Below, piece after piece: positions 6,348-36,615 of a stretch of 41,025 nt of DNA. The DNA is from Psammoneis japonica (lineage: Eukaryota). The position numbers and the translations under genes were made by a program. The first letter of the stretch is position 1, and every line of letters starts with the position of its first letter. A model generated the notes under the pieces. The model did not search any database. It worked only from the letters and a program-made list of their open reading frames with translations, and was not told the origin of the DNA. The stretch lies in the NCBI GenBank assembly GCA_008632985.1, contig QPGO01000360.1:1-41025 (forward strand), given 5' to 3'.

Positions 6348-6407
6348 AGTGACAGCAGAGTAAAGTAGAATCGAGAGCTTAAGATCGATTGACTTAACTT
6401 GTAGATT

Positions 6408-9925: not shown

Positions 9926-10015
9926 AGGAGGTCCAGCAGCAGCCTGAGCAGGCGCAGGAGGTCCGGCAGCAGCCTGAGCAGGTGCAGGAGGTCCAGCAGC
10001 AGCCTGAGCAGGCGC
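9926..10015. repeat. 30-bp coding tandem repeat x3 (PAQAAAGPPA)
   Basis: aggaggtcc(a/g)gcagcagcctgagcagg occurs three times. Confidence 0.85.
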
Positions 10016-11679: not shown

Positions 11680-11766
11680 TTAAATGAAGCTGAATCGATC
11701 AAAGAAGAGTCATCTGAAGCCTTTAAGTCTCCCTCAACCTCGCTCGAGATGTTATCGCTCATGTTG

Positions 11767-12879: not shown

Positions 12880-13275
12880 TTGAATCACTTATGTGTTATT
12901 TTATGTGCAAATCATACTAGAGTCTACGTGAAGAAATCGCTGTCGATCGCTGAAACTCGCAAAAAATCATCGTTCTGTTCTTCAGAATTCTCGTTGGGTG
13001 ACATCCAAATTCGCATCGGCCAAAAAAAAAAAAGTCTTGTCCGGGAGTTGGTTTGGCTGGATAATACGATCAAATATCAAATTGGAAAAAAATATTCAGA
13101 AAAAATGAACCGCACACCGCACCCCCAGTTTGATTTGGCTGTGGGTTGCTATGTATTGTTGATTGATTGAACATGAGTAGGGATGGTGCGTTCATTCAGG
13201 GCAAGGTTCAGGGCTTCATTGGCGAATGTGTTTCGCGTGATCGCCACCTTGCAGTAGATTGCACATTTTTGACTA

Positions 13276-14930
13276 ATGGCCATGTGGGTGCTTGCTCTTT
13301 GTTTGTTCGCAACAGTTGCTGGTTTGCGCTCATGCTTGCTCTTGGCTCTGGGATTTGCTTTTCTTGTTGGGGCTGATGCTGCTATAAGCGACAGAAACGA
13401 AGCTTGCACAAACGAGTACCTTTGTTTAGGATCCAATTCTGAGTACATTATAAGTTTCTTGCGTGAAGGAGAATGCAGGCAGGGATGCTATTCACAAGAT
13501 GCACTAGCGCAAAACAATGAACTGTTCGACTGGTCGTGTGGTCCCTGCCCAACATTGACACAGAGTCAACAGAAAGCGCGCAGTCTGAGCGTCCTCAGCA
13601 AGGAAGAGTTACTGGCAGAACAAGCCAAAGTTCTATCGATTGATTGGGAATGGGTCGTTTTTAAATACTTCTCGGTGGATAACCTTCCGAGAGGGACCGC
13701 ACCGACGTTATCGGTACGAGCTGTCGTTGACCAAGAGCCTGACATTAAATTTTCCCGTGACAGACTCATTTCATCTTACTCCTACCCTGCGGGAGACGCA
13801 AGTTCATACTGGGTAGGGTTTGTAGCTTACCCCTACGACTCTGCTTCTTCACTCGAAGTGACTGTCAATAGCCAGGATGGAGATATCCTTGTCCAGGAGC
13901 AGGTGGTGTTTCCAACTATGTACGATGAATGGACTGATGTCACTATCGACAAGGATGGAATTCAAATCAACATGTCAGTTAGGAGAAGTAACACGCCAAT
14001 TGTTTCTTCAGATGAGCAAACTGCCATGGAAGCGAGTATGACGGAGAAGCTCATTGATCTCGCGAACGGGGAGAAGGCGTCCTTAGCCTACAAGATTAAT
14101 GACCCTGTGAATACCAAGGCGGTTCTATACTTTCCTGGGCGCTTTGATTCCTTCGGTCAGCCTCATTTGCTCGAGACCTATGCATCTCGAGGGTTCGATT
14201 TCTACACACTTGATCCACGGAGGTGCGGCCGGGTTGCTCAGTTTCTTGACGACCCCCACTATATGAACTCCTTGAAAAGCTTTGACGAATATAGGGAAGA
14301 GATTGACTACACCATGGAATTTATTCGGAGCCAAAAGAGCTACACTACAATTCTAACACATGGCTTTTCGACAGGAGCGCTGGCTGCTCTGAACTATAGA
14401 ATGCTTCTGGAAGAAGAGTCCGACGTTGACCCCTTTGACGGATACATTCTGGAGAGTCCCTTGCTTGATTGGGGATACGTTACGTCCATGGAAGAATTTG
14501 GGTTAGAGAATGCTGAGATTGCTCGCCTTGTTTATGGGGACATTGCCAGAGAGGCAACCGGGGTGTCGAGTTTTTCAACTTTCAACTGGATCCTCTACCG
14601 CCAAGCTGTAAATTGGAAGACGCTCATTGACGGACATACAACGTTTGATTATGCAGAAGCATGCACTACTGTGATGGAAAAGATAAACAGTCGATTCTGG
14701 CTCTTTTGGGGAGCGCAATCACGGGGAAACCTGTCCTTTCCCTCACCTCTCAAGGTGATGATGTCGTGATCCCCGAAGAAACTATTGAACGATTGCGCAA
14801 TATTTCAAGAGATGTCGAGTCAGTGATGTTGGAATACAATAATCATGCTTTGTTCAAGTCATTCACAAGGGCGATGACCGATGATGCAATCCATGCGACC
14901 GCGTCGTGGCTCGACCGCAGGTTCGGCTAG
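13276..14930 (+). CDS. Secreted alpha/beta hydrolase (lysophospholipase / serine aminopeptidase S33-like); 1-nt frameshift ~14700
   Basis: Hydrophobic N-terminus, VLYFPGRFDSF, DPRRCG, nucleophile elbow HGFSTG, ILESPLLDW; C-terminal GDDVV and NHALF lie in ORF 14661..14930. Confidence 0.8.
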
Positions 14931-15122
14931 AGCAGCCAAGTTGATTGTTTTAGTTTGCAGTCGCGTTGGTCGAACATGAAAGCAAGCAACTGCTGTCTAC
15001 TCTATAGCATAGCTATGTACAGTAGAGAGAAAAGTGACTACTACTAGAAGTGCTGTCTGATAGCAGAGAGGGAACAAAGTAGACTACATAAAGGTATCGA
15101 CGGTGTTACCGGTCGGTAGCTA

Positions 15123-15864
15123 CAAGTAAAAAACCGGTCTGTCCTCTGCCTTTTGGCATCTGTGTAAAAGTCGATTTTGTTTCCAAAATCGATTCGCTTT
15201 TCACTGTGCAATGCTTCTTACGTCTTCTAACATTGTCAATTGACGTGCTCCTATGCCTGTATTTGCCAGGTTCACGGTTCTGAACACCATTGTTACTATC
15301 GCAAGAAGGGCCTTTTTTCGTTCCAAGAGGACAGACCGGTCGTCAGTAGATTTCTACGTGGCAACATACCGAGAAATTTACACAGTTCTTTTTTTGCATC
15401 CTTCGTCAATCGCTTAGCCATTATCTCTCGCAAGGGCAGAATGGCAAGTCCATAATACACACTCGTATCGAATAATGCGGGTCCATAAGCTCTCCTTCGT
15501 TGTTGTTTTGCCTTATTACTCGCATTTCGTATGCAGGCATTTGTCACGAATTGGAAATGGACATGTAAAAAACATCCATCAATGAGGATAATTAATGATA
15601 GAAAATCTGTGTAAATTCTCAAACGGTAGATTTTTCTTAGAAAATGGCGATGTGCCGCTTTTGGCCCCAATTGTGCCATGATGCAACACTCTTTTAGCCC
15701 GCTGTTTTCGCAAAGATCTCTGTTGACCTTCTGACCGATGCCAGCAGACAGGGTTTGCATGTGTGACAACGGGAAGCCCTTCTTAGAGTGGTTTTACACA
15801 GTTTGCTCTTGCAAGAGGACAGACCGGTCGGAAGAGGACAGACCGGTTTTTTACTTTTCGTATG
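15123..15864. mobile_element. Probable MITE with imperfect terminal inverted repeats
   Basis: AAGTAAAAAACCGGTCTGTCCTCT (~15124) is the inverse of AGAGGACAGACCGGTTTTTTACTT (~15833). The motif AGAGGACAGACCGGT recurs at ~15326 and ~15814. Confidence 0.6.
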
Positions 15865-16167
15865 TACAGTAGGTCTACAGTACTGTAGCGAGAAAAGTGA
15901 GCCCTACAGTACCTGCGCCTGCCCTACAGTATGTACGCGTATACGCCGGTATCATAGCCTTACGCACTCAACGTATGGCTACACTGTATGACATTCTTAT
16001 ACTGTATTCAGATATTGTTAAAACACATGACACGTCACAAGTGCCACCACACAACACATCATTTCATAACATTCCTTCTCTCTATCGGAAGAATCCATCG
16101 ACCATGACCTACCCCGTGACCGCCTTGGTGACCGCGACATGTGGTGTTCCCTGTTCATAGTATAGCC

Positions 16168-19100
16168 ATGACGATGGAAAACAGCAATAAGACTTACGCC
16201 TCGTCACCAAGCAAGGAAAAAGAATCTGGGACGAATAATAGTACTTCTGATTCTGAGTCCAGAGGCGTGGCGTCGGATCGGACCATTCTAGAATTCCAAG
16301 ACAGCGGTAGCATAAGCCACGACTTCTCAGTCAGTGCATTATCGGACGGATTTCGCTCTAGCAGCAAAGAAACCTTGGTTTCCTCAAAACGGCTATCTTA
16401 TCAATTTCGTAAGCCATCAGATCGGAAAGTTAACAGTCTCGACGGGTTCACAATTAATCGGCTCAATTTCGGGAATTCGATTTTATGGACGCGACACCGA
16501 AATCAAACAACTCAATGAGGCGCTAGATTCTATAGAGAATAAAAAACAATTGGTGCTGCTAGCCGGATATTCCGGTACGGGAAAGACGGCACTGGCCAAG
16601 ACTTTGCAGCATCGTGTGAACAAATTGAAAGGCTTGTATGTGGAAGGCAAATTTGACCTAAACTTGCGCAACGAACCCTACTCGGCCTTGGCACATGTTT
16701 GTGGGGCAATTTGCGCCCGAGTCCTGTCTCTTGAACATGAGTCGTCTGATACCTTTCGTACGATTCTCACTTCGATTGAAGAAGGTCTAGGCCCTGAACT
16801 TGAAGTGCTGCTCCGAGTGTTTCCCATCTTGGAAGAATTAGGGAGTGTTTCCGCCAAGCATTATGATGCTCAGAATCCAGTGGACGCCAAGAAAAGACTC
16901 AACTATGCCTTTTGTCGATTAATACGAATCGTTGTGCATTTTTTTAAGCCGTTTGTTATGGTCTTGGATGATTTGCAGTGGGCTGATGCACCCTCACTTG
17001 ATCTGTTGGATGCCATATTGATGGACCGTGACATGCAGATGTTAGTTGTTGGGATTTATCGATCAAATGAGGTCAACGAAACGCACATGTTGTCGAGCAA
17101 CCTTCGAGACTGGCGGATCCGTTCGAAAATAGGCGATGTATTTTCTATTCGAGAGATCAATGTCGGAAATCTCGACTTTGAAGCTGTACACAAGTTTGTC
17201 AATGACATTCTGTCCACTTCTGATACACAAACCCTCGGATTGGCATCGCTGTGCCAAAAACGGACTCATGGCAACGTGTTTTTTCTCACTCATTTCCTAC
17301 GTCTTTTGCATCGCGATCAGTTGTTGCAGTACAACTTTGGTACACTCAAGTGGACCTGGGATCTGCATGAAATTGAATTAAAGACCAAGGCAAGTGAGAA
17401 CGTTGTTGACTTGCTGTTGCAAAAAATGCACGGATTGCCAAGCGATCAGAGTGAGATTCTTCGAGTCGCCGCTTGTTTGGGTGCAACCTTTGAAGAAGAT
17501 ACCTTGATCTTGCTGTTAGGCGAGCTGCGCGGAGGCATAGAAGCAAGAGAGGATAATACGGATGAAATTAAGAGCGCGCTGAAAGCACTAGTGGTTGAAG
17601 GCTACCTTCATGAGGAGGAAGGGACTAAATACACTTTTTCGCATGACAAGGTCGAAGAGGCCGCCTCGCTTCTCACACCTACAGAGGCTGGTCGTCATGT
17701 CTTCCACCAGGAGGTTGGTCAGACATTGTTGACTTCTTTACGTCCGAAGGATTTGGAATCAGCTGTTTTCATTGTGGTGAATCTGTTGAATGAAGGCGAC
17801 TTGCCTGTTGACGAAGCGAAACGAGCCGATCTCGCTCAACTGAATCGTCGAGCATGCACTAAAGCCATGACCGTTTCTGCTTTCGAAGCAGCTAGCAACT
17901 ATGCCTCAAAAGGGATTGCTCTATTGGGAGATGCCCCCTTTAAAAACGACTGCGACCTTGCTCTGGATCTCTTCTCAACTGGCGCCGCAGCGGAAAGTTG
18001 CCTTGGTAACACGGAAAGAATGGAAGCCTACTGCCAAGCTGTCATGCAAGAGACTGCTCTGCCCATCAAGGACAAGCTTCGAGTCTATACGACTTGGCTG
18101 GATAGCCTGGCGAATCGGGGACACATGGAAGCGGCGGCTAAGGAGACACTGCGTCTCTTGGAAGAGTTTGGTATTCGCTTTCCGCGTAGTAGAACGATGC
18201 AGTCTTTACGCACCCTGACTAACATCATGAAGGTCAAGAAGGCTGCCACCAAGGGTAGCTTGCTTCAAGATGTCTTGGCACTCCCTGTCGAAAAGGATCC
18301 GACTAGGATCAAACTGCTTCATTTGATGGATCGCCTTTCGGTCTATCTCTTTATTTCACATGATGAGCTTATGCCCCTGGTGATGTTTCGCAATTTGAAT
18401 GGACGCTCAAGTATGGTAGAAACGATGTGACTCCCACCGCGTTGACTACCTTGGGGATTATCTTTGCAGGCATCTTGGGTGATCTGCAGTTGGGGGCTGA
18501 GTTTGCCCAGACAGCTCTGAAACTTATCCCAAGTCTTCACCTCTAATCGAGTCGCGGACTCTTTTTGTCGCCCACGGCTTTGTAGTGCCGTGGACTCAAC
18601 CCATGCGTAACCAGCTTAAACCTTTACAGCGAGCTTACGAGTCAGGGCTGTGTTCCGGCGACGCGGAGAGTGCGTGTTGGGCGATTTATGCGTTTTATCA
18701 TATGCGATACTTGACAAGCTTTTCCTTGGATTTGTGTATTGCCGACGTTGAAACTTACATGCCGCAAATGAAGGACTTGAATCAAGTCGTCACCTACCGC
18801 AGTACAGTGGTGAATTACCAAATTTTATGAATTTGGCGGGACGCTCCGAAACAGACCCGCTGTCTTGGTAGGAGAATATTGCATAGCCGAGAACCATAAG
18901 GCTTGGTTGGCTGAAGATCCTTTTTATGAACACCATTGTCGCATCTGGATTGTTACGTTCGACACTATACGGGGAACACGAAGAGTGTGCAAAGCTTGCT
19001 GTCAAATACGGACCGAACGCTACTGTGAAATCGAACCCTGGCGCTTTTTCGATGAGCCTCTTTGAAATCATCACTAAAGGGGTATCTTCCTTTATATCCG

Positions 19101-19511
19101 CACGCCAGACAGGAAAGAAGGCTTACCGCAAGATTGCAATACTATTCGGAAGCGAATCAAGGATTGGATCGACAAGGCAATCCCAATGTTACTCATTTCG
19201 ATGCTTTCTTTGATGCAGAATTTGCCGCTCTAAAAGGCAAGAGCTTTGCTGCCATCAAGAGTTATCAAGTTGCCATCATAATTGCAGCACGTGGGGGGTT
19301 GTTGCTTGATGCTGGCTTGTTTTCAGAAGTTCTTGGGGAGTACTTGCTTGATCAGGGCAATGACACGGATGAAGCAACATTTAGGCTACAAGAAGCAATC
19401 AAATATTATGGAGAATTTGGAGCAAAGCGTAAAGTCGAAATGATTGAAAGGAAGCACCGCGAACTTTGGCCCAAGCCTTTGGTCGTAATGGCCATAGAGA
19501 CGGCGCAGTAG
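16168..19511 (+). CDS. COG3899-like P-loop ATPase (AAA_16) with helical/TPR-like C-terminus; several 1-nt frameshifts
   Basis: YGRDTE, Walker A GYSGTGKT, GKFD, Walker B VLDDLQWAD, YRSNEV, THGNVFF, FSHDKVEEAA; C-terminal EAIKYYGEFGAKRKV. Pieced together from ORFs 16141-19511. Confidence 0.85.
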
Positions 19512-19887
19512 CAGTTTTATGTAGCTAGCTGAGCACACATATTTTCCCTGAATTGTAATCACTACTTGGGGGGTTCTTTGTTCTCTTTCAACAGCAGCGT
19601 ATGATACCGGTATATACCGGTATAGATTCTTCTTGCTAGCTACCGGTACTATGGAGGCTTGCTCTCGACCAGTTTCAGGCGGAAATCGCTCGGTACCTCC
19701 GTAAGTATCCACCACATTTGATAACTTTCGAGCTCTACCATTATGACTGTCAGCAGAAGTGGGATAACTGCTTTTAAAGAGTTAAAACATTCGCGAGAAA
19801 CAGGTGGAAGAAAATGCGTCATGGCCGTGCGCGTCAAGAGCGAGTATCTGAGGACAGAATGAGACATAGACTGTTAAACAACGTACG

Positions 19888-20893
19888 TTATGATAATTTC
19901 CGAATCAAGCGTTGCTGTTGTATCGCAAGTGAGGTTAACCATTCCAAGGCGGCACGAACATTTCTTCCCGTCTTGGCTGATCCCACAAATTGCCCAACCA
20001 GCGGACTTAGCTCTACGGGCATGATTGTAGTAGAATTCTCGTTGCAGTTGCAAAACACCAAGATTGGTGTTTCTTCATTGGGCAGTTCCTTGCGTAAAAT
20101 GTTAATGAGAGATGTAGGTTGTTCTTTGTTGGGAACACAAATAATCACAGCATCCGCGTCGGCATAGTACTTGGGCCAAATGTCCCTCATTTTGCCACCC
20201 AAATCCCAAAAGTGACACTTTGCACCACAAATGTCGACACGTGCCAAGTTCATACCAACTATAGCATAGAAAACAAATAAGAAAACAATATTAAGTTGTT
20301 ATGGCTTTGTTCTGAAATCAAATCATCTTCAGAAAGCAAACTACTTACTTGTTGGTCTGATTTTGTCCAGAGACAGCATATGGGCGCCTTTTTTCAAGTC
20401 ATACTCTTGTTCCTCCTCTTCCTGTGGAGCATTATTTGCCGCAAAACCGTTTGAAGTATCGTTTCCTTCGTCAATTGGAATGTCCTCCATACTACTCGAC
20501 CAGCTCGCAGTTCTCTTTGAAGTGCGGTGGTTATTGCTGTTGTTTGCTTTCACCAATTTTCCTCTTCATCATCATCATCATCATCCTCCAGTTTGACTGC
20601 ATATTTTGCTGGTGCTGGGCACAGTCGTCTCCTTAGTGGTTGTCGTTTTGGTGGTTCTGCTGGCTCGTTGGGAACAGCGTCTTGTGCTTGTGGTTGGCTC
20701 GTACTCCTACTACTCTCCTCCTGAGAAGAAGCAACAGCAAGAGTCAAGTCATTGATTGTTTTTCTAGAGAATTCCGTCACTTTGATGCGTTCCAACAGTG
20801 TCGATTTTCCTACACCTTCATTGCCAATCACAAGAATATTCAATTGACTTGGCGCCCAATACCGTTGATACAAACCCGACGCTAACTAAACAT
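19888..20893 (-). CDS. ARFRP1: ARF-related small GTPase (ARFRP1-like) with long insert; intron 20259-20348
   Basis: MFSLASGLY N-terminus (after 1-nt correction), GNEGVGKST, RPT|IGMN across a GTAAGT...TAG intron, WDLGG, WPKYYADADA, SAKTG. Confidence 0.8.
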
Positions 20894-21059
20894 GGTAACC
20901 TCAACGGAAGCAAGAAAAAATTTCTGCTGATTTCAGAAATGACTGCAGGGAAAACATGATAACGGCAAATTAACGGATAGAGCTCGAAGAGCTTGCAAAT
21001 CTTTCGACTTTCGAATCATCGTCTTGCTCAAGAATCCTCCCCCAGCCCGAACATCATTG

Positions 21060-22600
21060 TAGTTTCAATCTGGAGACAACCTGGTGGGCCACACCATCTG
21101 CCACCTGGGGCTTCCAGCGATCTCAGATGTCTCCAATAAAACAGGGCTGTGGCACCAGAGGCATCCGCAGAGGTGCGGGCTGGCTGTGCACAACGTCCCT
21201 CTCTCTCCCCGCTTTGTTTTCTGCCTTTGATTGTCTCCTCCTCTGGAGCAAGCTTTGACACAACAAGGCAGGATCCAGGCCACACTTGAGAGTGTAAAAC
21301 ATGTACCAGGAAGTGATTCAAAGGGTGTGTGCCAGCATCTCAATGAACTGACAGAAAAAACTTGGCTGCAACACGAGGACCCTCTGCCCTTCGGAGCTGG
21401 CAGGAGGGAGCGGAGTGCAGCAAAGCTCTGTCAGGGGGGATTTTTTGACATTTGACACTTTTGTGGGTGTCTGGTTGTGCAGAATGTGACCAACTTTGTG
21501 CAATGATGGCACCACAAGTGTTCCGTGCTGTGTGGCTGGGAGTCCTCCACACCCCTCCTGTTTGTGAAATTTTCATGCCAAGAAAGACATGCTCCAGCTG
21601 TGGATTGATGGGGCATGCAAAAAAACATGTGTGCATGCACCCAAAATTTTTGCATGGTCACCAACTTGGGATCAAAGTTGTGAGTGGAGAGCATTGTTTC
21701 ATCCATTTGGAATTGTCTTGATGCACCAAGCAGCAGCAACAAGACCCGCTGCACGCAGCGCACCAAACAAGCACAGAGCGGCTCCTCATTTCTCCCATTT
21801 TCATTCTTGAGCCAAGGGTGGGGGGAGGCATGTCCCAGGTTTGTCCAAAATTGCCATTGTGATGTTCAACAAGGCCACCACAAGTGCTCATTTTTGAACA
21901 CAAAAATTGTTCTCATTTGTGCTCAATCTTGCACAAAAATGGGACACTGGGTGTGGCACATTGATGACGGCAGTCATTGATCTTTTTCAAAAATGCAGTT
22001 GTCCAGTGTGGGACTCCAAATGCATGATGTTGATCACTCAACACAGGAGAGCACAATTTTAAAGCAAGTCTCATGCTGGCATGCCTTTGCAGCACAAACT
22101 TGTTGTGGCTTGTGTTTTTCCCCTAGACAAAGCCCGGTGAAAAAGTCAGAAAAACCATGCAAAACATGAGCTGTCTGGCCAGCCAAGCTCAAGCCAAAAA
22201 AATTTGCATGCATCTCAACACAGAGGTTTGTTGAACTTGAGAGCCAAGTCTTGTTCATTTTTGTGGTCATTTGGTGTGTCAACAAAAACTTGTGCACATG
22301 ATGCTGCAAACAATCAGTCGTTGCAGGGAGAGTCTGCAAAATAACACACAAATGTGAAGGCATGCTTTCTTGTGTTACACAAAAAGCACTTGGAGCCATT
22401 GACAAAAAGCTTTGTGCCATCAAAACTCACAAAAGAAACTTCACACACTGGGTGGCACTTGAGGCTCTGCACAGAGCAACAAGTGTCTCTTGCACAAGTC
22501 ACCATGGTCTGTGGTGTGTGGCTGTTTTTTTTGACAACTTCTTGAAGCTTTGCTGCTGCTTTGCAAGTGGCACCCAATCAACAATGTGAAGCAGATGTGA
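21060..22600. other. TpA- and CpG-depleted degenerate block, possibly DNA-transposon relics
   Basis: Abrupt switch to TG/CA-rich sequence. Weak VLHTPP...GHAKKHV resemblance to a Tc1/IS630 transposase C-terminus at ~21540-21630. Confidence 0.55.
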
Positions 22601-23583
22601 CACATGCTTTAAAGGAAATGACAGTGTACAGTGTTTTCCTCATGATTGCCAAAAAATGGACCTGTTGCATTCACAGCGTTTTGCCAGGTTTTTCATGCAT
22701 CACAGAGAGTTGGCAGCCAGATGAAGTCACCAAAGTGGATCTGCATGACACAGAAGCAACTGCAGAATGGGTCAACTTGGGTGCATCCTCAGACTCATTG
22801 GGATTCCTGGCATTCAAAGCTTGCAACGCAAGGCCCCACTGCAGTCTTCATCACAACGAACTCCAACCCAAAAGTGGAGGACTCTGTGATGTTCTGCCTC
22901 TTAGAGCAGTGCAAGATGGGTGCCCGCTGGATGAATGTCAGGATCCCAGTGTGGGACCTGCACACGTCACACGGCATCCAGTGTGATCAGCACTCACAAA
23001 ACAAGTGGCAGTCATGCTGTTCCCATGCACTTCCGGCACATTCAGCGGCAATGGTTCAGCCGTGCCGGGGCAGAATTCCTCTCAATCACATTTTGTGAAA
23101 TGACTCTCATCAAAGATGGGCTCAGTGTTGTCAAACATGCAAAAATGTGGAGCACCTCATCCAGATGTCCTGCTTGTGGTGCCACAAGGTGGGACAGCAA
23201 CAAAAATGTCAATGCATCCCACACTTCAAAACTGCCCATTGGAGCACCCCAACAAGACCTTGGTGACAGTTGACTGTTTTGGCATTCAACTCAGGTGAAC
23301 TGTCCAGTTCAGGTCTGTGTCCTGAGCTCAAGGGTGTTGATGCCTTTGTCAGAAGACACCTGTCAGTCTTCTTAACCTCTAGCTTGACATCAGCTAATGC
23401 CCTTTTGATGCACAAGTCAGAGGACATAGCCCAGCATGTCTTACCATCTGCATCAGACAACTGATGCTTTCTGATTTGTGCACCCAGGTGCTCTTCAGGT
23501 TCACAGACACTTCTGTCATTCAACGTGTACCTAGAGCTCATGTAATCCATGACCTTTTGGGGTTCATGGCCGATGCCAAGGAC
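22600..23583 (-). pseudogene. Relic RT/RNase H of a second Copia family
   Basis: VLGIGHEPQKVMDYMSSRYTL, EPEEHLGAQI, WAMSS, GHRPELDSSPEL, NCHQGLVGVLQWAV, HTGILTFIQRAPILHCSKRQNITESSTFGLEFVVMKTAV. Confidence 0.85.
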
Positions 23584-24200
23584 TGCGAAAAAGTCGTGCT
23601 TCTTTCAAACAACGACAAGACGAAATTCCCACACTCAACGAATTCATGCACAAGGCTGCTGTACTCCGACAATGCCGAACATTCTTGAGAGCATCGAAAA
23701 ACATCTCGGCAGGAATGGAGCGCGACCAAGCTCAAGATGAATTCGGCGTTCCTTATCGAGATTTAGTCTAAGAGACGGCTCTGATCCATTGGCCATTCAA
23801 ATGTCCTTTAAATGGGGTGAAATGCGATTAAAGAGCTTTGTTTCCATGGTGGGACATCAAACTCCAGCTTTTCAAAAGAATCCATCAATGTTCACAACAA
23901 ATGCCAGTAATGATGATGAGGAACCACAAAATGATGAGGAGAAAAGCAAGTCTGACATTTGGGGTGAACGAGGACGTGTCGGTGTCGGATGGCCGTGGCA
24001 TCAAAAATAAACTATAGAAAGTGATAGACTGGTGATGACTCTGCTTTGCTGCTGCTTGCTTTTTGTATATTTGCATGACAAAATTCTACATTCTTCCGGA
24101 TCAGCCCAGAGGATTTGCAACCAGAAGCCCGACTCTACCTTTTTAACGCAAGAGAGTGGATCCTCAGAGCAACATAGTCACCTCCCTTTCAAGCTCATTG

Positions 24201-25469: not shown

Positions 25470-27110
25470 CTGTCTTCTCCCGAATCTTGTCAATCTGTTG
25501 GAGCATCTTTGCCATCCGGTGAGTCGCAAACACAATTGCAAACACAGGAACTTGACCCATGCTCTCAACATGATGTTCATTTTGCTCAGACGGCAGCCGC
25601 GAAGCTCCGAGGTTGTTTTGCCTTTGACCAGCACATCCCCAGTGCCAATCATTGGAAGGTGCACTCAACAACCTCCCAGACCTGGGAGAGCCACCGATGG
25701 CAGAGACCAAGAAGGTCTCTGACTTCCTGGAGGCTGACAGAAGAAAGTGTCATGCTGGGGGGTGGCAACCAGGCCAACCTCTCCATTTTTGAGCTGCATG
25801 ATCAGCACATTGCACAAAGACTCCAGAGTTGACAATGCGAAGAGCTGTGACTGCTCATCAGTGCAGTGGCCAAGTTTGAACTGAAGCCAGGAAATGAGAG
25901 TGAGATGAACAGCGTGTTGTGTGTTGGCAGCAACAGATGCCAATTTAGACAAAGAGGCATTGGAAAATGTGAGCAATTTTCACAACATCAAGCTGCAACA
26001 AAGACCAGATGTGCACGCAAGCTGCCCAAATTTTGTTCACAATTTTGGCAGCTTTTTGCAACTCAAGAGCTGTCAAAATCATCTGATCACTGACAAAAAT
26101 CAAGTGAAGAAGCCACAGCTGTTTTAAAGACATTTGACGAGTTGAAAAGCAAGCAAGAGCAGTTGAAAGCACTGCCTCAACTCAACAACTGTGAAAACAA
26201 TGCAGCTGTTTTGCACACTCCAATGTGCACTCTTTTCATTGCTGCACGGCCTGTGTGTGCCATGCATTTTGACTATGAAGACCTCTGAAACCACCACAGC
26301 TTTGACACCAGCTCAGAAAATTTGCACGAGGCACCAAGTTTGGCAGGCTCTGGGCTTCAAGATTTTGGGTGCTGGCCTTGGCAGAGGTGCAACTCAAAAA
26401 AGGTGGCACAAACAAATGCTGTTGGCAGCTTCAACACACATGCATTGCAATGTGTGCATCATGTGACTGTGCCAGTGCAAGCTGATGGTGCGCACAGGTG
26501 TTGGAGCACAAAAGCACAGCAGCGAATCTGACTGTGGCTGCGTTGGACCCAGCTGAGGTGTCAAGAGTTTTTGCTGAACAGCAGAGCCCACTGGGCTTCA
26601 AAAGTGAGAAGAGTCCATGGCTCTGTCTGAGAGTGAAAGAGATGGCATCAAGCTGCCGCTTGTTTTGCTGATGTGTGGGGGAGAAGGGCCTGTGCAGCAG
26701 ATGATGGGCGCTGTGGCGCACGCCAACAGAGAGCACAGAGCTGTTGCTTCCGTGCTGGTGAAAGAACAAAAGCAGAAAATGCACCAAGTGGCAACCAATG
26801 GACAATGACCAAACACAAAAAAACAAGCACCATTTGGGGACATGTGAGGCCAAGGTGGGTGCCACAATGTGCAAAAGCCCTTGAGCCAGAGCCAGAGCAG
26901 TGTGGTGCTTTGACTGTGGTGGCTGGGCACGACAATTGAGAGCCTCTGGCAGAGCTGGCTGCACCTTCATTCCCCCTTCTGCTGGCCACCTCCCCGCTTA
27001 TTTTGTCCTTTCAGCTAGAAATGGGTGTCAGATTTGGTCAGATCATTGCTGCACTTTTCCCTTCCATCTGAGAAGTTGCTCTGCTCGCAAAGCACACCCG
27101 CATGCATAGA
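25470..27110. other. TpA- and CpG-depleted degenerate block, probably a decayed transposon
   Basis: TA is nearly absent, with sharp compositional edges next to normal genes. No confident protein match. Confidence 0.6.
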
Positions 27111-27268
27111 CAGACAGAAAATCATTTGACTCATTACCAATTACACTGCCCACCATTTTTTCTGCCGCCGACAAAAAACAAAACAGAAACGCTCCCTACT
27201 CCCCGACAGTATACTTTCTTTATAGTTAGTCTCTAATCGTTGTTGCTTCATAGCAAACACTTGTTACC

Positions 27269-28845
27269 ATGTCTCCAGTCGACGAGGATTTGCGTTTTGG
27301 GATTCTTCAATATCTCCAATCCCATGGCGAATTCGAAAAGAGCGCCAAGGCGCTCAAGCAAGAATTGAAAAAGTTGTATGGAATCTCCAACAAGCCCACG
27401 GTGTTTGGAAGTTTGACCCTCTTGCCTCCACCGCCACCGAAAAAAGCGTCTCTTCCACCACTGCCCAATAACGATGGATCGGAAGCGGATACAGAAGACA
27501 GTGATGACGACGACGAAGAAGAAATCATGCCGTCGGGTACAAAACGAAGCAACTCCAAGGATGCGAGTGAAACAGCAAAGAAAGCCGTACCGAAACCGAA
27601 AGCATCCGCAAATAGCTCAAGCAGTTCTAGCAGTAGCAGTGACTCCTCCTCCTCGTCATCATCATCTGAAAGTGAAGAGGAGACTACCAAAGCAAAAGCA
27701 GTCACCAAAAAGAGTGAATCGAGTAGCAGCAGCAGCAGCAGCTCTTCGTCATCGTCGTCGGAAAGTGAAGAAGAAGCCTCCAGAACAAAAGCTGTCGCCC
27801 AAAAGAAAGAATCTAGTAGTAGCAGCAGTAGCAGTAGCAGCTCATCCTCATCATCATCGGAAAGTGAAGAGGAAACGACAAAGCCAAAAATGGTCGCCAA
27901 GAAGAGTGAATCCAGTAGCAGCAGCAGCAGCAGCTCGTCATCGTCTGAAAGCGAAGAGGAAGCAGACAAAGCAAAAGCAGTCACTAAAAAGAAAGATTCT
28001 GGCAGCAGCAGCAGTAGCAGCAGTGACTCTTCCTCTTCTTCTTCGGAAAGTGAGGATGAAGGAAAGGTAAAGGCGACCGACAATAAGAGAAAGCATGACA
28101 GCAGTGGTAGTAGTAGCAGTGATTCATCATCTTCGTCTGAAAGCGAAGACAGCAAGAACCTCTCGCCCGTACGGAAAAAGTTGAAATTGGAAAACGTCAT
28201 TGAAGATAAACAAGAAGGCAACGATTCAGCAAAGAAGGAGGAATCTCTCGTTGAAGCTGCTCACAAGGTGACATCGTCCGACGATAGCAGTGACGTAAGC
28301 GACACGGATGTGAGTGATGTATCCGATGTATCGACCGATTCTTCGTCCGACGACAGTTCTAGCAGCAGCAGCGACGACTCGTCGTCATCATCCGAGGACG
28401 AGGAGGAGGCACGTAAACACCTCGAGGCAAAAAAGGCGGCGGCACGGAAAAAGGCACAACAAGCCGCCAAGGCGGCAGCAAGCTGGACACCCAAAAAGTC
28501 TCCAAATAATGACGCGGCTAATACAACGCCCATTACTACAAAACGTGGCACAGACGGTGCTCAGGCTTTGTCGTCTGGCAAACCCTTTCAACGGGTGGAT
28601 GATGAATATTGGGGCGAGGCGGCTCTCCAACACGGTGGGGCATGGCGGACAATTCGTATGAAGGTGTCTTTGGGAACGAAGGATTCGGCTCCAAGGCGTC
28701 TGAAAAGCTACTCACGGTGCGTGGTAAGGACTTTCGACATGAAAAGACCAAGCGCAAGAGAAGTTATAATGGCTTTGCAAAGGCGGGAGGTGCAATATCC
28801 ATGCAGAGCAATTCTACCAAATACACGTATTCTGATGAGGAATAG
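27269..28845 (+). CDS. NOLC1: Nucleolar phosphoprotein SRP40/Nopp140-like; 1-nt frameshift ~28640
   Basis: LisH-like ILQYLQSHGEFEKSAKAL; alternating poly-Ser/acidic and Lys/Ala blocks; SRP40_C-like KPFQRVD, DNSYE, GKDFRHEKTKRKRSY. Confidence 0.9.
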
Positions 28846-29220
28846 AATGCAAAGTTGTGGTGTGCTGTAGAAAAGTTATTAGTGAAGGCGTACTGCACAA
28901 AAAGAGAAATCATCATTTGCAGCTACTATCTGTGCTTTATGTCGAAGTGTTGTGGGGCTTGGGAGAAGAAATTTAATATGTCTACATACTGCATGAGCCA
29001 GCGAGTTGTGTGCCAAGTTTACAGGATTGTCATGGAGTATTCTACAAGCGTAAAAAAAAAACATGCTGTGAGCAGTGAGGAGTAAGAGTATTTATCACTT
29101 GGCGTGCCCGGGATGAACCTGGTACTTCTACTACCTGTAAGGTTACTTGTTGAGCTTGAGATTACGATAGTAGCAACGGTACGTAGGCCCTCTACAGTAC
29201 ACTAGTTGTAGAGAGTAGCT

Positions 29221-30300
29221 TCAAGTTTTCTCTAGAGTGATTAGAGAGTCTATGGTATATTGGAAGGGATGCGTCTGGGGAAATGTGTGGCGGAAGGGTC
29301 GCGCGAAGCGCGCTAGGGGATGGGGAGAAAAAGGGTGGACCGAGAGTACGGACAGACGGTTGAGAGGAGGAGTTGGTAACAGCAGGGTGGCGGAGGAGGA
29401 AAGCTTGATGCGTAGAAAGATGGGTGGAGAGAGCAAAGCCGAAGTTAAGACTGAGGATTTGGGAGGCCCAAAGTGATGGTGTTGAGGCGTGATGTGAAGA
29501 GCCGAAGCGGTCTTGAGAGAGTTGTTTCCAGGCCCCGCGTTGGAGTTGGCAAGGAGATCGGAGGGTGCGAGGAGTGAGTTGGTGCAGGCGGAAAAGGATG
29601 GCTGAGAGTTGGAAAAGGAGGCAGGACTTGTCCAGGGTGGTTTAGGAGGAAGGGGTGGCATGGGGGAGGAAGTTTTGGCAGAGGTGCCGAAGAAAAAGGT
29701 GTTGAAATGGCAGCCGATGCCGCCGAGGTGGTCGAGGATGAAAGGGAGAAGGAAGAGACCGGCTTGGTTGATGGCGTCAATGATGTTGGATCTGTGAGTG
29801 GATGATGCAGAGCAACCAAGGAGCTTGTCCCATGTGCTGCTGAGGTGAGCCTTGTTGAGTGGGTTTTCAGGGACAGGCAAACCAGGTGCAGGAAGCGGGG
29901 CAGCTCTCGAGAGGCAAACAATCGCGTGGCAGGACAGAGGTGACAAAAAGCGTTCGCCAAAATGACCGGGACATCGGGGCATGTCTCAGGATGGCACAAA
30001 AGCAATGCCAAATGGAAACTTGGCTGTCACATTGAATGAAGGCGAGAACCACGTCTTTCAACATGTGAACGAGAAAGATCAGATCGAAGCGACTGAGCCT
30101 GTGCAGGTCGATCTAGGGCCCCAGCTGCCGGTGATGTTGACGAGAGTTGTGAGATGTGATCGTGCACTCTTTTGCCAACCAACCTGTGGGCAAAAGAGCA
30201 CCACACTCCCACAGGAAGTCAGACCAACCGGAGGTGTGGGAGCATGAACAACACGGTTGTTTGGCTCTTCAACCCATCCACCATCACCCCAGAAGCAACC
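29221..30300 (-). mobile_element. 3' fragment of a non-LTR retrotransposon (CRE/RLE-like), degenerate
   Basis: LFLLPFILDHLGGIG and, after a frameshift, RFGSSHHASTPSLWASQILSLN resemble recalled C-termini of diatom non-LTR ORFs. TA loss increases toward 30300. Confidence 0.5.
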
Positions 30301-30306
30301 TAAGAA

Positions 30307-33300
30307 TGGATTGTGTCGGGATCTGCAATCCTTTCAACAACTGTGTCAGTTCCAACAGAGGGAAGCACAGTTGTTCCCGCCATCCCTGCTGGCTCCGGTG
30401 TGAGGTTCAGTGCCTCTGACACTCGGTTGACACAAAAAGGTGTGATTGGGTTCACCCTTTGCTGGCAGCAGATCAACTCATGCATCAGGCACTTGTTGGT
30501 TTGGGTTGTGGCTGTGCAAACAACACCTGTGATGACAAATCAATCAAAAGCATCATGTGGGTTGCACCTGCAGCAGATGCCACTGTGTGCATCGACTGTG
30601 ATGGCGATGGATCATTTGACGACTCTTTTCAAGCTTTGGAGCTCTGGTCAATCAAAATCTCTGACAACTCAGATGCAGACATGACTGGGGCAACTGCATT
30701 TGCTGCTGCTGGTGGTCCTGATGACCCAACGGTGGACATCACAGTTGCTTGGGACAGAACCCCTTTGTTTTGCATGTTTTTCAGAGACTTGCTCATTGGA
30801 CCTCAGAACAACTGCACCCCCTTTGCCAATGCTTTTGGCTGGAAAGACATCGGCTCTCCTCCAGGACATTGATGGACATGGAAAGGCTGACTTGGGTGAC
30901 TTGTTGTTGCGCGCTGTTTGAGTGGCAAACACCGGAAGAGTTGGTGCACTGACTGGTGGCTGGAATGTCACAAACTTCTGCAATGCCATGTTGGATGCCA
31001 GAGACTGCATGGCAAACACTGCCATGTGCAATGATGGAACTAAAAGGTTTCCATCCAAGACAAAGCATCTGGAACTCCCTTCCCTCTTGGGGGGCTAAGG
31101 TCTGACCAGTCCGTTGATCTTGGCCACTGAAGGGGCACATGAAATGACATTCAAAGTTGCACAAAGCAAAACATTGATGATTTGGAAGCAGGCGTGGATC
31201 AAATTTCCAGTGCTGGAGAGATCAATGGAAACAAATCTGATTGGTTTGAATCTGCAACCCTGCTTGATTTTAATCCAAACATTGAGCATGATGGCGCTGA
31301 TTGTCCCAGATCAGAGTCTTTTGGAATGCAACAAGAAGATCCGGTGACACATTGCTGCAACATGATCAACCTGGAGACACCCAGTTGAGCAGTGTCAAAG
31401 TCTCAGATGCTGTTGCAAGCCTTGTGCTCCGACGGCATTCAGCCCAGGCAGCTGGCAAGTGCTTGCATTCCAAACTGACGTTGAACGCAGTCAATTCAGT
31501 GCTGCCACAGCATCAAGGATCACAAACCACAGAGATGGAGAGAAATGATTGTTGATCAATTCATGGACCCTGTCACATCATCTGATGCTGCCGGTGCAGA
31601 TGCGCTCCTTGCACCAACAGCAAATGACAAAAATTGCGCTGCCAATGAAGACACCCCAATCCAAGTTGCTTCCCCTGAAAATCTTTCGAATGACAGTGAT
31701 GAGAACTGGAACAATGATTTGATGGTGACTGTCTTGATGGCACCTGCAAATGGATCTCTTGACCAGAATGCGCCAATGTGGACTTCAATGGATTGGATTC
31801 TCACACGTGCAAGGCCTGCAACCAAAACGGCCCATGTGACCAAGCGACAGTCACGGTCATTGTCAAGGGGATGAACGATCAACCCGCTGCTCTCAACAAC
31901 TCAATCGTGACTTCAGAAGACACTCCAGCAACAATTGACATTGCAGACAATGATCTTGACATCAATGGTGACCTTGTCCCATTCAAAGCTGCTGTTTTAA
32001 CCAGGCAGACAAACAGGACAGTGGATGACAACAGCAATGGCACCATTGCGCACACCCCACATGAAGACTTCAATGGTGTTGATGCGTTCGCACACCACCA
32101 AGTGCGAGACACTGACAGCAACTGCACCAGTGCAACCACAACTGTTGCACTTGATGGTGTGGACAATGCACCTGTCACTTTGGGTGACTCCATCATGACT
32201 CCAGAAGACACTCCAGCAACGATTGACATTGCAGACAACAATCTTGACATCGATGGTGACCTTGTCCTCAGCACAGCCGCTGTTTTAACCGGGCCAACAA
32301 ATGGATCAGTGGACAACAATGGTGATGGCACCTTTGTGCACAACCCCCATGCAGACTTCAATGGTGTCAACATGTTCACATGTCAAGCGTGCAACACCAA
32401 TGGTGACTGCGCTGCTGTGACCACAACCATTGCAGTTGATGCCATGAACGACGCACCTGTTGCTTTGGATGACTCCATCACAACTCCAGAAGACACTCCA
32501 GTGATGATCAACATTGCAGACAAGAATGATCTTGACATTGATGGTGACCTTGTCCCAAGTGCAGCTGCTGTTTTAACTGGGCCGACAAATGGAACAGTGG
32601 ACAACAACGGTGATGGCACCTTCACACACACCCCAGTTGAAGACTTCAATGGTGTCAATGCAATCAAATGTCAAGCGCGCAACACCAACAGTGACTGCAC
32701 TGCTGCAACCACAACAACTGCAGTTGAGGCCATGAACAACACACCTGTTGCTTTGGACGACTCCGCCATGACTCCAGAAGACACTCCAGCAACAACTGGC
32801 ATTGCAGACAATGATCTCGACATCAATGGCGACCTTTTCCTGAGCACAGCTGCTGTTTTAACCAGGCAAGACTTTGACGGCAAAGATGCACTCACACATC
32901 AAGCAGTGCGCACAATGCCAACGGTGACTGTGCACTGCAGCAACTGTCAATCTTGTTGTGCTTGGTGTCAATGATGCACCAGTTGTTGTTGTGGATGCAG
33001 TGAGCACCAACAAGGACACTGCGGTGGATGTCAACACAGTCACCAATGCTCCAGAGGATGTTGATGGCAACCTTGATGCAACTTCTGCAACAATTCTGAC
33101 ACCACCTGAGAATGGCCAGGTTGTCAACAATGGCGACGGAACATTTGCATGCACTCCGGACCCAGACTTCAATGGCAAAGACTCCTTCACCTGCCAAGTG
33201 TGCCACATTGACCAAGAATGTGCAACAGCTGCTGTCACCATCACTGTTGAACCTGTCAATGACCCTCCTGTGGCACAGAATGGCAAATTTGCCATGGAAG

Positions 33301-34490
33301 AAGACGATGTGCTTGACACTCCGATTGGCGCAATCTTGCTGAATGACAGTGATGACAAAAATGAACTGAACCAATTGTCTTTGGTGGTTCTCACATCAAA
33401 TGCGTTGAACGGAGCTGTGGTCAATCAAGGAGATGGAACACTTTGGTGCACTCCCAACCCTAATTTCAATGAAGTTGATGAACTCACCTGCGCCATTTGC
33501 AACACTGGTGGTCTCTACAACAGTGCCCTTGTCACAATCACTGTCAGCTCCATCCTGGATCCACCCATTGCCCAGGACCTTGGACTTGTCATTGACCAGG
33601 ATGCAGACTTGTTTCTTTCCGAGGCGGCTGGAATCAAGCAATGTCTTTCATGCAAGGACGGCATGTTGGGATGCACAAACTGTTCAAACGCTGGCATTTC
33701 TGATGTGGACACACCACTCGGCACCTTGATGATTTCCACAATGGAAAGCACGAGCCAGTTTGGTGGAGACATTGATTCCACATCCAATGGCAAGTTTGCT
33801 TGTGAGCCAGCAGAAGGCTTTGCCAGCATTGATGACGCTGAGTGCTTGGTTTGTGATCCTGAGGCAGGGTGTGCATGACACTGGAATGATCAAGATGATT
33901 GTCATGCCTGCAACCAAGCACAATTGTTCTGTTTGCTGTGGAGACTGGAGTCAGGTGGTCACTTTTACATCTCCAACAATTTGGGTTGAGAGAGTGTGCA
34001 GATTAAAGAGTTTTCTCTCATTTTTGAGCACCTGACCAGCGGTGGCACATGCGCTTCCGGCACTTGGACGCCATTCGAGGTGGTTGGCTGCAAATTTGAC
34101 CATGCCACAAGGACCGTGCTTTGCTCAAACAACATGGTTGTCAAATTTCAGCAGTGCAAGGCCAACACACACATCCCACCAGGTGCAGAGACTCATGCCA
34201 TGGCATTGACAGATGTTTTGGCAGCATGTCAAGCAATTCAATCAAGAGCATCATCTCTTTGAGCATGGAGGGAGCAAAAGGTGAACTCAGGGATCCAAGG
34301 GAACCCAACGGTTGCATTTCCCAAGGCAGATGCTCCAAAGGTTGCAGCAAAGGCAAGGGCAAGGGTTGAAAATGCAGAAGAAGTCTCAACTGATGCTCTT
34401 CCTGCACCCGCTCCAACTCCTGCCAGCAAGGGCAGAAAAGGAAAAGCAGTGAGAGCCGGCAAGGGAGGAAAAGGAAAACAAGCAGCATGA
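30307..34490 (+). pseudogene. Hypermutated gene for a large extracellular protein with tandem ~95-aa cadherin-like / Big_9 (tandem-95) Ig domains and a GK-rich tail
   Basis: Repeated NDAPVALDD..TPEDTP..I..NDLDIDGD..LTGPTNG.V.NNGDGTF.xTP..DFNG.D.FTxQ units at a ~285-290 nt period; ends GKGGKGKQAA*. Has stops and frameshifts; the 5' limit is approximate. Confidence 0.85.
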
Positions 34491-35167
34491 AAGCAAGATC
34501 TTCCATCACCACAATTGTTGCATTGCCCCCAAGCATTTGCTCTTTAGATGCAACACAAAAGAGCAAATGAGCCACTTCAAAAGTCAACAAGATCGTCATC
34601 TTCATCTTCCCCAAACCAGGCTCAGCTTGTGCAGTGGGCTCTTTCATTGCCGCAATTGTTGGATTGCCCACCAACATTTGCTCTTTGGGTGCAACACACA
34701 ACAGCAAATGAGCCATTGCATGAGTCAACATGATCATCATCTTTGTCCTCCCCAACCAGCTTGGCTTGCAGGGAGCTTCCCACAAGGGTGGAAAAGAAAA
34801 ACCAGCATGAAAGTGCAGGCTTCCATTGCAGCAATTGTTGGATTGCCCCCAAGCATTTGCTCTCTGAGCATGACAGCACACATGCCATCACATGGGTCAA
34901 TGTGATCGTCATCATCTTCGTCTTCCCCAACCAGCTTGGCTTGTGCCGTGGTGGGGAGCTGCTCAGTTTTCTGTGCACTTGCTTGGCGCTCATCCTGCGT
35001 TGAAACCAAGATGGGTCATGGGGCCACTTGTGCTTGTTAAAACCAGTTGTTGGAGTCCGCAACATGACTGCTGGCTCAAAAAGTCGTCAGAAAGAATGTT
35101 GTGACACCACTCTCGACTCTTTCTCAGGATGTCTTTCAGGATGTGCTGTGAGATGACCTGTGCATCT

Positions 35168-35208
<41 letters not shown>

Positions 35209-35540
35209 TGTTTTCAAAGCTCCTCATCCCACTGCTGTCTCGCATGGCAGGGACCTGCTTTTTCGCGTTGCGAGGAGCGGATGTCATGCAAGAAAAGCAC
35301 AAAAGCCTTTGCGTGCACAAGTCAATGTAATCATCAGTTTTGTTTTCCCATCAAGCTCAGCTTGCAGGGGAGCTTCTCAGTTTTCCATGTTCTTGGCACT
35401 CCTCCTGCGTTGTTGAAACCGAGGGGCTGCACGTGCTTGTTAAAAAACAGTTTGTTGTTGGAGTCCGCAACATGCCCACCTTCTGACTCAGAAAGTCAGA
35501 AAGAAGACCACCACACACTCTCAACTCTTCCTGAGAGCAT
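34483..35540. repeat. Degenerate satellite-like repeats (~140-180 bp subunits)
   Basis: CAATTGTTG(C/G)ATTGCCC at 34512, 34653 and 34832; CAGCATGAAAG at 34483 and 34803; 34895-35125 resembles 35320-35540. Confidence 0.75.
35170..35208. repeat. (CT)n microsatellite
   Basis: Seen directly in the sequence. Confidence 0.95.
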
Positions 35541-35966
35541 CATCACTCTCGTGTTCTTTTTTCATTCTCGCGCATTTGTGTTTTTGCGTTTCGAGCAGGC
35601 TGCGGAGCAATTTCACGCTCTGCGCATCAGCCCTCCTCTTTGTGAGCACTTCGAGTGCACCCACACGATCAACGCCACTACATGACGATGTCTAATGCAC
35701 AAAATAGGATTAATTGAAATGCGCCGTGAGCTGCGTTCGCAACATCATTGTCGCAACACTTTTTGTCCTCTTGCGTTATTTTTCGACGAATTCAACGTGG
35801 ACGGACGACGGACGGGCGCGACGAGTTCGAGGCTGTACTCATTCGACCTCTCTCTTGCATTCAAAAGATCTTTTCCACGTGTCCTGTCCTACAAATTCCA
35901 CGTGAGATCCACATCTATGTTCACCGTTCACCTCTCACTTTTGTGCTGTTGGCCGTTGCATCCACC

Positions 35967-36615
35967 ATGTCGTTTTCCATTACCGTTCCTCCCAGCTACG
36001 GCTATGTTGTGCTTTCCTGCACCTTGGGTAGCTTTATTACCAACACCATCATGTCGGGACCCGTCATGAAGGCGCGTGAAAAGTACAATGGTAAGATGAT
36101 TCTTCATCATTATGTTTTTTAATGTTGTGCTGTGCGAGAGTGCGTTTTTTCAGTGTGTTTAGCTCACTCTTTTGAATTGCCAGTTCCTTATCCCAACATG
36201 TATGCAACTCCCGGATACCACAAACAGGCGGATGAGTTTAATCGTATTCAACGTGGACATCAAAACATGTTTGAAAACATTACCGTCATGATGTAAGTCG
36301 CGAATGCAAAAAGAAGAGTTGTTTCTTTTTGATTCTTTGCTGTTCTAAACATTCAACTACTGTATTGCACATTATAACAACAACACACAGGATTTGCGTC
36401 TTGGTGGGTGGAGTCGCGTATCCGCTCTTTTGTACCGGAAGCTGCGTCTTGTACCATGTCGGAAATATTTTGTACCAAAAAGGCTATGGCGATACCTCGT
36501 TGGATATCAAAATGGCTCGTTACAAAAAGGGTGGTCTTCTCAAGCACGTAGGCTTCCTCATGGCCTTGGGTGCCAATGTCAAGCTTGCCGGAAGTATGTT
36601 GGGTGGTGGAATTAA
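35967..36615 (+). CDS. MGST3: MAPEG family microsomal glutathione S-transferase (MGST3-like); introns 36091-36183 and 36293-36390
   Basis: MSFSITVPPSYGYVVL...VMKAREKYN|VPYPNMYA...FNRIQRGHQNMFE...YQKGY with GT-AG introns. Stop is at 36615 if a 1-nt error is assumed, otherwise 36679. Confidence 0.9.

Follow-up and report, generated by a model that had tools for sequence, protein, structure and literature searches.

Why has a gene built of tandem protein repeats lost the tyrosines that its relatives conserve, and what unit of the genome was hit when it lost them? These questions are raised by a repeat array in contig QPGO01000360.1 of Psammoneis japonica (assembly GCA_008632985.1), of which we analyzed a stretch of 41,025 nucleotides, hereafter the window. 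A reading made from the sequence alone had placed an Ig/cadherin-like gene of the tandem-95 type at 31545-33880, with histidine or cysteine wherever tyrosine was expected, and had taken it for a host adhesin-like gene that lay next to a non-LTR insertion and was hit like a transposon, as happens to duplicated genes under repeat-induced point mutation (RIP). We found that the array lies in one of four islands in which TpA and, over a narrower core, CpG have been replaced by TpG and CpA. We consider it likely that this reflects locus-targeted, TpA-directed deamination of adenine to inosine in the DNA of a marked chromatin domain, accompanied in the core of that domain by deamination at methyl-CpG. 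The observations that carry this explanation are the composition of the islands, the direction of change at conserved codons, the mass balance of dinucleotides, a sequence-context rule, and the order of events, the changes being later than both the repeat duplications and a Copia insertion.

Tyrosine loss in the tandem-95 array

The family assignment held. In a Pfam profile search the 398-amino-acid open reading frame (ORF) at 31778-32971 matches Big_9 with an E-value of 2.4e-43, as well as Cadherin_4 (1.2e-37) and Cadherin_5 (1.3e-30), and the 306-amino-acid ORF at 32958-33875 matches Big_9 at 1.3e-30. The Big_9 score of 147 bits, against a cut-off of 23.6, places the array among proteins made of tandem units of ~95 amino acids. 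We built a hidden Markov model (HMM) of the unit from 128 repeat units out of 39 bacterial and metagenomic relatives, and with it mapped nine pieces, amounting to ~8 units, within 31611-33875 in two of the three forward frames. The features of the array are as follows.

31611-33875, forward strand: decayed Big_9/Cadherin_4/Cadherin_5 (tandem-95) array of ~8 units (Pfam, unit HMM)
31611-31772 + 31775-31876; 31877-32161; 32165-32449; 32450-32737, forward strand: unit pieces of the first half (unit HMM)
32738-32869 (with a fragment to 32972); 32973-33260; 33261-33551; 33693-33875, forward strand: unit pieces of the second half (unit HMM)
31899-32867, forward strand: tandem DNA repeat with a 288-bp unit, 3.4 copies, 79% matches (Tandem Repeats Finder)
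31772-31775, forward strand: break 1, in unit 0, with profile columns 54-61 lost and the frame shifted (unit HMM)
32869-32932, forward strand: break 2, in unit 4, with an in-frame loss of columns 45-63 at 32869/32870 followed by two frameshifts (unit HMM)

The frameshifts of break 2 lie near 32901 and near 32930, ahead of the frame of the 306-amino-acid ORF. Its deletion and first shift are also present in one of the de novo contigs of a public sequencing run (X1) that we compared with the window (record 4, 32454-32908, 0 gaps); independent support is limited to these two changes, and record 3, which spans 31772-31775, has its indels only partly listed. With these deletions and frameshifts, the tandem-95 repeat gene is a dead remnant, as had been suspected. 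We call the array a dead member of its family because none of its 13 cells at the two conserved core tyrosine columns of tandem-95 proteins holds a tyrosine.

Those columns are 59 (Y 0.85) and 73 (Y 0.90) of the unit HMM. In the window column 59 reads H,H,H,C,C,C and column 73 reads C,H,C,C,C,C,C, and all 13 aligned cells are codons CAC, TGC or TGT, each one transition away from TAC or TAT; the same column switches between histidine and cysteine among neighboring copies. Counted from stop to stop, the two long frames hold no tyrosine in 403 amino acids and one in 316, in agreement with the earlier counts of zero and one; the tyrosine share in relatives averages 2.9%. Since histidine and cysteine together make up only 1/4,053 of relatives at column 59 and 1/4,050 at column 73 (4,060 units from 151 relatives), the replacement of tyrosine was rightly described as mutational rather than as family variation. 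The sole tyrosine codon of the array, TAC at 33515-33517, stands at a column where the seven other units carry cysteine (TGC or TGT). It looks like a later G-to-A change that made a new TA not yet purged, and hints at an episodic TpA process. A TTA codon in TTTTAACC is kept in all four 288-bp copies, and the tyrosine codons of those copies have all changed.

The sequence-only reading had described two mutational signatures, TA to CA/TG and CG to CA/TG, and both were recovered. The D/N and A/T differences between repeats, which it had put down to CpG decay, do fall on CpG sites, for example ATCGAT, ATCAAT and ATTGAT in three copies, or AACGACGCA and AACAACACA in another case. Across 45 conserved profile columns we counted 122 mismatches to the family consensus. 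Reversal of the signature (CA or TG back to TA or CG) mends 54 of these in 213 chances, compared with 18 in 153 for other transitions (Fisher p=0.0013), the commonest restored changes being N to D (15), C/H to Y (13), A to T (10) and I to V (5). Between the 288-bp copies, adjacent double transitions of the CA<->TG type number 59 versus 16 for all other types combined, as pairwise counts between copies that are not independent events. This excess indicates that the purge came after the internal duplications; ancestral TA or CG was resolved separately in each repeat copy.

Purged islands and the T-A-Y context

In counts per 200 bp, four islands stand out across the window, in which TA is nearly absent, CG is scarce and CA+TG is twice as frequent.

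29450-35680, unstranded: island 4, TpA-purged, which holds the array (dinucleotide counts)
30400-35250, unstranded: core of island 4 in which CpG is depleted, with a rho CpG of 0.26-0.37 in 1-kb windows and TA-only shoulders outside it (dinucleotide counts)
7200-9000, unstranded: core of island 1, TA 0 and CpG near 0, with TA-only shoulders at 5800-7199 and 9001-11250 (dinucleotide counts)
21200-23400, unstranded: island 2, TA- and CpG-purged, without recognizable domain (counts, Pfam)
25600-27000, unstranded: island 3, TA- and CpG-purged, without recognizable domain (counts, Pfam)

Over 29600-35600, rho TpA is 0.05 (18 TA in 6,001 bp), rho CpG 0.36 and rho CpA+TpG 1.77, compared with 0.64, 0.97 and 1.14 in a control stretch at 11401-20800. 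Taken together, the islands (11.4 kb; 28% of the 41-kb window is purged) hold 3.0 TA per kb versus 38.5 outside, a 13-fold depletion, and 17 CG per kb versus 52. The gain in CA+TG of 80.9 per kb stands against losses of 38.9 TA and 37.4 CG per kb, and GC content is unchanged. On both strands of island 4, TAA and TAG triplets together number 33 versus 320 for TGA. The loss of these two stops therefore leaves many long ORFs in all six frames, of 100-250 amino acids in island 4; the search found no Pfam content above chance level beyond the Big_9 array in the other island ORFs or in the rest of the window.

The purged block around the array reaches ~2 kb past the gene on each side, into non-coding DNA. 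The islands share no similarity with one another, and islands 1-3, which have no repeats within the window, carry the same signature. The gene and its internal repeats, which had been proposed as what was hit, were therefore not the unit of the process.

A separate record of the change is provided by a Copia element at the left end of the window, whose right long terminal repeat (LTR) adjoins island 1.

261-6769, strand not given: Copia element with RVT_2 and gag_pre-integrase (Pfam)
272-619, unstranded: left LTR (LTR alignment)
6422-6769, unstranded: right LTR, with 7 of 14 TpA and 0 of 19 CpG changed (LTR alignment)

The LTRs of an element are identical at insertion. Here they show 10 differences over 348 aligned bases (96% alike): among the 14 TpA of the left LTR, six read TpG and one reads CpA in the right LTR, none of the 19 CpG differs, and the remaining three differences comprise one TG/CA double and a single A/G. 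We take the right LTR to be the one that mutated, since TA density in the left LTR is normal for the genome and the right LTR lies in a TA-poor zone. The TpA changes are later than the insertion, and the element is purged at one end only.

The LTRs also disclose a context rule (Y, pyrimidine; R, purine). Adenines in T-A-Y were changed at 7 of 12 sites versus 0 of 16 for T-A-R (p=0.0007), and the T-A-Y sites were changed at 6 of 6 positions on the plus strand versus 1 of 6 on the minus strand (p=0.015). The islands bear the same mark: 24 of the 34 TAs left in them are Y-TA-R (12 of these TTAA) versus 17% outside (p=1e-11), a count that becomes 21 of 31 (p=7e-10) when only one of the four repeat copies of TTTTAACC is counted. 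Per kb, T-A-Y falls to 0.5 in the islands versus 23.7 outside, and T-A-R to 2.4 versus 18.1. Under the rule, a TA can escape on both strands only as Y-TA-R. In the array, a purine precedes the codon in all four histidine outcomes at tyrosine codons, in keeping with the rule, which needs a purine there for a hit on the opposite strand.

In the two shoulders of island 1, at 5800-7199 and 9001-11250, Y-TA-R occurs at 8.6 and 7.6 per kb versus 4.4-7.6 in controls, while the other TAs fall 5-10 fold, to 7.9 and 3.6 per kb versus 28-40, and CpG is normal in both (47-61 per kb). The TpA process therefore reaches over more DNA than the CpG process and can act without it. The left shoulder enters the Copia element by ~1 kb, and the right one covers a 374-amino-acid ORF (10127-11248, minus strand) without a Pfam match.

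The X1 contigs carry the same TA- and CG-poor sequence, with four differences and 0 gaps in a 1,907-bp piece and three differences and 0 gaps in a 455-bp piece, and the island sequence is therefore no base-calling artefact. The k-mer depth of X1 is 53-57 across island 4, with flanks at 44-73. At a likeness of at least 85%, beyond which older, more diverged copies would fall, this depth argues that 30.1-35.7 kb is single-copy, which speaks against the duplication trigger that the sequence-only reading had assumed. Among the listed differences between the window and X1, 37 of 40 fall inside the island. These 37 include 15 of the type CG<->TG/CA (in both directions), two pairs of TG<->CA doubles, two TA<->TG and 16 others. 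CpG sites, at ~2% of island dinucleotides, thus account for 41% of the listed in-island differences, an excess from which it follows that the CpG process is running still or was until recently. At 30148-30149 and at 31595-31596 the window has TG and the X1 contig CA, as expected if two lineages or haplotypes had independently resolved one ancestral TA or CG.

Proposed mechanism and rival explanations

In the mechanism that we favor, two processes would have acted. The first would be a TpA-specific A:T-to-G:C transition, from TpA to TpG or CpA, at the adenine of 5'-T-A-Y-3' on either strand, which would spare Y-TA-R and reach ~0.4-2 kb beyond the core; its likeliest cause is an enzyme that deaminates adenine in DNA, of the kind proposed for the alga Bigelowiella natans. 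The second, confined to the core, would be decay of CpG to TpG/CpA, most likely because 5-methylcytosine deaminates where DNA is silenced and methylated. The two would have turned every TAY (tyrosine) codon into CAY (histidine) or TGY (cysteine), removed TAA and TAG stops and, at codon boundaries, also changed D to N, V to I, and T to A or A to T. Foreignness or silencing may be what marks a target. The natural site of bacterial TadA is U-A-C in tRNA-Arg, and the T-A-Y preference would match it. The outcome, A to G after a 5' T or U, is shared with the TadA/ADAT and ADAR enzymes, although those act on RNA.

Several points tell against this account. In most substrates of eukaryotic ADAT2/3, A34 is followed by a purine, a poor fit to T-A-Y that weakens ADAT2 as a candidate. 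The processes are known here from footprints only. The LTR comparison is without an outgroup, and TA loss in the right LTR rests on density (14 versus 7 per 348 bp, with a genome norm of ~13) and on the adjoining purged zone. Foreign origin is drawn solely from bacterial best matches at no more than 45% identity, and islands 1-3 have no recognizable content. Finally, the record of X1 names no sequencing platform.

The comparison with RIP was apt in that genome-defense-like hypermutation is the best reading of the locus, while the chemistry at TpA is opposite and neither the target nor, as far as the X1 depth shows, the trigger is RIP-like. In ascomycete fungi, RIP changes C to T at CpA and raises TpA, depends on duplication of the sequence and takes place ahead of meiosis. 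We think it unlikely that a similar repeat-triggered mutation, set off by the internal 288-bp repeats or by a second genomic copy, marked the gene. The gene does carry tandem repeats, the signature is confined to a block, and many diatoms encode DNMT4, a relative of fungal RID for which PMC9998398 gives no known function. RIP and the present case both hypermutate by transitions in blocks, with the death of genes and transposons, both depend on dinucleotide context, and both leak into neighboring single-copy DNA. However, RIP would turn CpA into TpA, whereas here the change is A:T to G:C at TpA, with TpA depleted and CpA enriched; island 4 extends ~2 kb beyond the repeats on both sides and is single-copy by depth; islands 1-3 lack repeats; and a young Copia with two closely similar LTRs is purged at one end only.

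A somewhat lower probability attaches to a block that was purged before its arrival, in a donor such as a virus, a bacterium or another eukaryote, with no activity in the present host. Such a history would fit with the only recognizable content being bacterial-type and the other island sequences being without known relatives. Against it, TpA-specific change in the right LTR, like the TA-only shoulders, lies in host-side DNA and arose in the present genome, and X1 differs from the window by CG<->TG/CA and TG<->CA changes, which indicate that change continues.

It is very improbable that a long-read base-caller took modified bases (5-methylcytosine at CpG, an altered T or A at TpA) for others and that the consensus then settled on TG or CA. 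The pattern does affect exactly the two self-complementary YpR dinucleotides, each of which goes to TG or CA, and record 3 of X1 has 29 gaps in 2.3 kb against the window, such that the assembly may hold indel errors. The X1 contigs, however, agree with the TA- and CG-poor sequence in long gapless pieces that noisy long reads would not yield; a small doubt is left by the unrecorded platform of that run.

We give almost no credence to a working gene family that naturally uses histidine or cysteine at columns 59 and 73, for instance for metal or disulphide chemistry: its long open frames notwithstanding, these residues occur in about one of 4,050 units of relatives and alternate at one column between neighboring copies, the array holds deletions and frameshifts, and 100-250-amino-acid frames lie open on both strands island-wide, TAA and TAG being gone, in purged DNA that is partly non-coding. 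Unlike these rivals, a thymine-modifying route, in which 5-hydroxymethyluracil or 5-formyluracil mispairs with G, is a possible alternative to adenine deamination within the favored mechanism, as it would give the same transitions. Adenine mutagenesis of the diversity-generating-retroelement type was rejected, the changes being symmetric on both strands, bound to TpA and spread over 6 kb that include non-coding DNA.

Known systems, origin of the array and its surroundings

The TpA-directed hypermutation of the window has a close parallel. In mutation-accumulation lines of B. natans, 231 of 302 mutations fell in two integrated viral regions and were nearly all TpA to TpG/CpA, at ~1000 times the genome baseline; the genome has 124 clusters poor in TpA and rich in CpA+TpG, and an ADAT2-like protein was proposed as the enzyme (Mettrop et al., bioRxiv 2026, 10.64898/2026.01.13.699255). 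The cluster thresholds given there are passed by 11 of 41 1-kb windows of our stretch, five of them consecutive at 30001-35000, over the array, and three at 21001-24000. The two cases share the TpA to TpG/CpA transitions, seen here in tyrosine codons changed to CAY/TGY and in 7 of 10 LTR differences. They also share kilobase-scale TpA-poor, CpA+TpG-rich clusters beside a normal baseline genome, and targets that are unannotatable or foreign-looking, including genes of possible bacterial origin. They differ in the host, which here looks like a diatom (a stramenopile) whereas B. natans is a chlorarachniophyte (a rhizarian). They also differ in the extent of the purge, near complete here (rho TpA 0.03-0.06) versus 0.45 in the region of nucleocytoplasmic large DNA virus (NCLDV) origin in B. 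natans, and in the co-depletion of CpG in the cores, the T-A-Y rule with Y-TA-R survival and the strand-coordinated run seen here; finally, the rate was obtained there from mutation-accumulation lines, while here the process is known from its footprints. In a full-text literature search we found TpA hypermutation in this preprint only and no diatom report; the preprint's main text contains neither the word CpG nor the word diatom, and we found no flanking-context analysis in that text.

The change in the window is thus hypermutation of a very recently described kind, in another algal lineage than that of B. natans. Relative to what the preprint's main text presents, the confinement of CpG decay to island cores, the T-A-Y rule with its surviving Y-TA-R, the strand runs, and the TpA-only shoulders and LTR changes are new. 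Methyl-CpG decay as in vertebrates, plants and CpG-methylated diatom transposons resembles the core in its CpG loss with a matching TpG/CpA gain, and in that CpG sites are the commonest of the listed differences between the window and X1. It accounts for only half of the signature, since shoulders and Copia LTR lose TpA with CpG unchanged. That diatom transposons are CpG-methylated is stated in PMC9998398.

In the literature found, TpA hypermutation has so far been reported in one species, and if it is true of diatoms the phenomenon is old or recurrent in eukaryotes and can be tested in a group with genetic tools. We would tentatively go further, though the odds are somewhat against so broad a claim: TpA-directed hypermutation might be a genome-defense system common to algae of the stramenopile-alveolate-rhizarian (SAR) group, including diatoms, acting through a strand-processive, T-A-Y-specific (TadA-like) DNA adenine deaminase over a chromatin domain that exceeds the CpG-methylated core and is partly independent of it, and, to judge by the 28% of the window that is purged, may have rewritten a large share of the intergenic DNA of a diatom genome. 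A search for the enzyme is constrained by the window in several ways, namely by the T-A-Y preference, the refractory Y-TA-R, the strand-coordinated runs, and the reach of the domain, which overlaps the CpG-decayed core but extends past it. There are also hazards for annotation: lacking TAA and TAG, purged islands yield long false ORFs on both strands, and genes within them read as tyrosine-free, Cys/His-rich "novel" proteins.

As for the origin of the array, its best relatives are giant bacterial proteins at no more than 45% identity, one of them from Mycolicibacterium, and the protein searches found no eukaryotic paralogue; the proposal of a host adhesin gene finds no support in these results. 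A search of 5.8 billion proteins of similar length gave the 398-amino-acid ORF no relative above 48% identity, a search of 1.84 billion representatives gave none above 45%, and viral contigs gave no match; one metagenome locus reaches 44%. These searches thus yielded no intact orthologue by which the changes could be polarized directly. Cargo of this bacterial type fits "foreign DNA", as far as such matches can suggest it, and falls short of proof. The host is probably a diatom, a placement that comes only from the Copia element and one other gene: the named best matches of the Copia reverse transcriptase (RT) are from Attheya and Epithemia (44-48%), and the nearest Atlas clusters of an HA-domain gene are diatom-dominated (scores 0.82-0.86), the latter being leads only. 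The protein database contains no protein of the present genome, and since the reference proteome of B. natans is public, B. natans is an unlikely source.

Island 4 is an intergenic block between ordinary genes.

27254-28867, strand not given: LisH/SRP40_C gene, left neighbor of island 4 (Pfam)
35968-36300, strand not given: first part of the right neighbor gene, which starts at 35968, directly past the island edge (X2 joint)

None of the listed runs is recorded as RNA. A second run, X2, from the same sample as X1, may be RNA, since in the right neighbor it shows a GT..AG joint at 36089-36183 that skips 93 nt (36090-36182) at a depth of ~1,700; X2 is without cover over 30636-35975, which is no evidence either way. 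The non-LTR insertion supposed to adjoin the array could not be recovered: ORFs of at least 45 amino acids at 29.2-36.1 kb, and of at least 70 amino acids at 6.5-12.5 and 18.3-29.3 kb, showed neither an RT nor an endonuclease domain. At the left edge of island 4, a G-rich stretch at 29300-30100 shows an X1 depth near 2,000 versus ~55 elsewhere, with many variant joints; it is a high-copy repeat, and possibly what was taken for the insertion. Downstream of the Big_9 array, still inside island 4, three degenerate direct repeats of ~140 bp (34460-34951, 69-74% alike) are without a domain match. Internal repeats also occur at 27629-28149 in the LisH/SRP40_C (Nopp140-like) host gene, at ~95-190 bp spacing and 70-78% alike, and there TA and CpG are normal.

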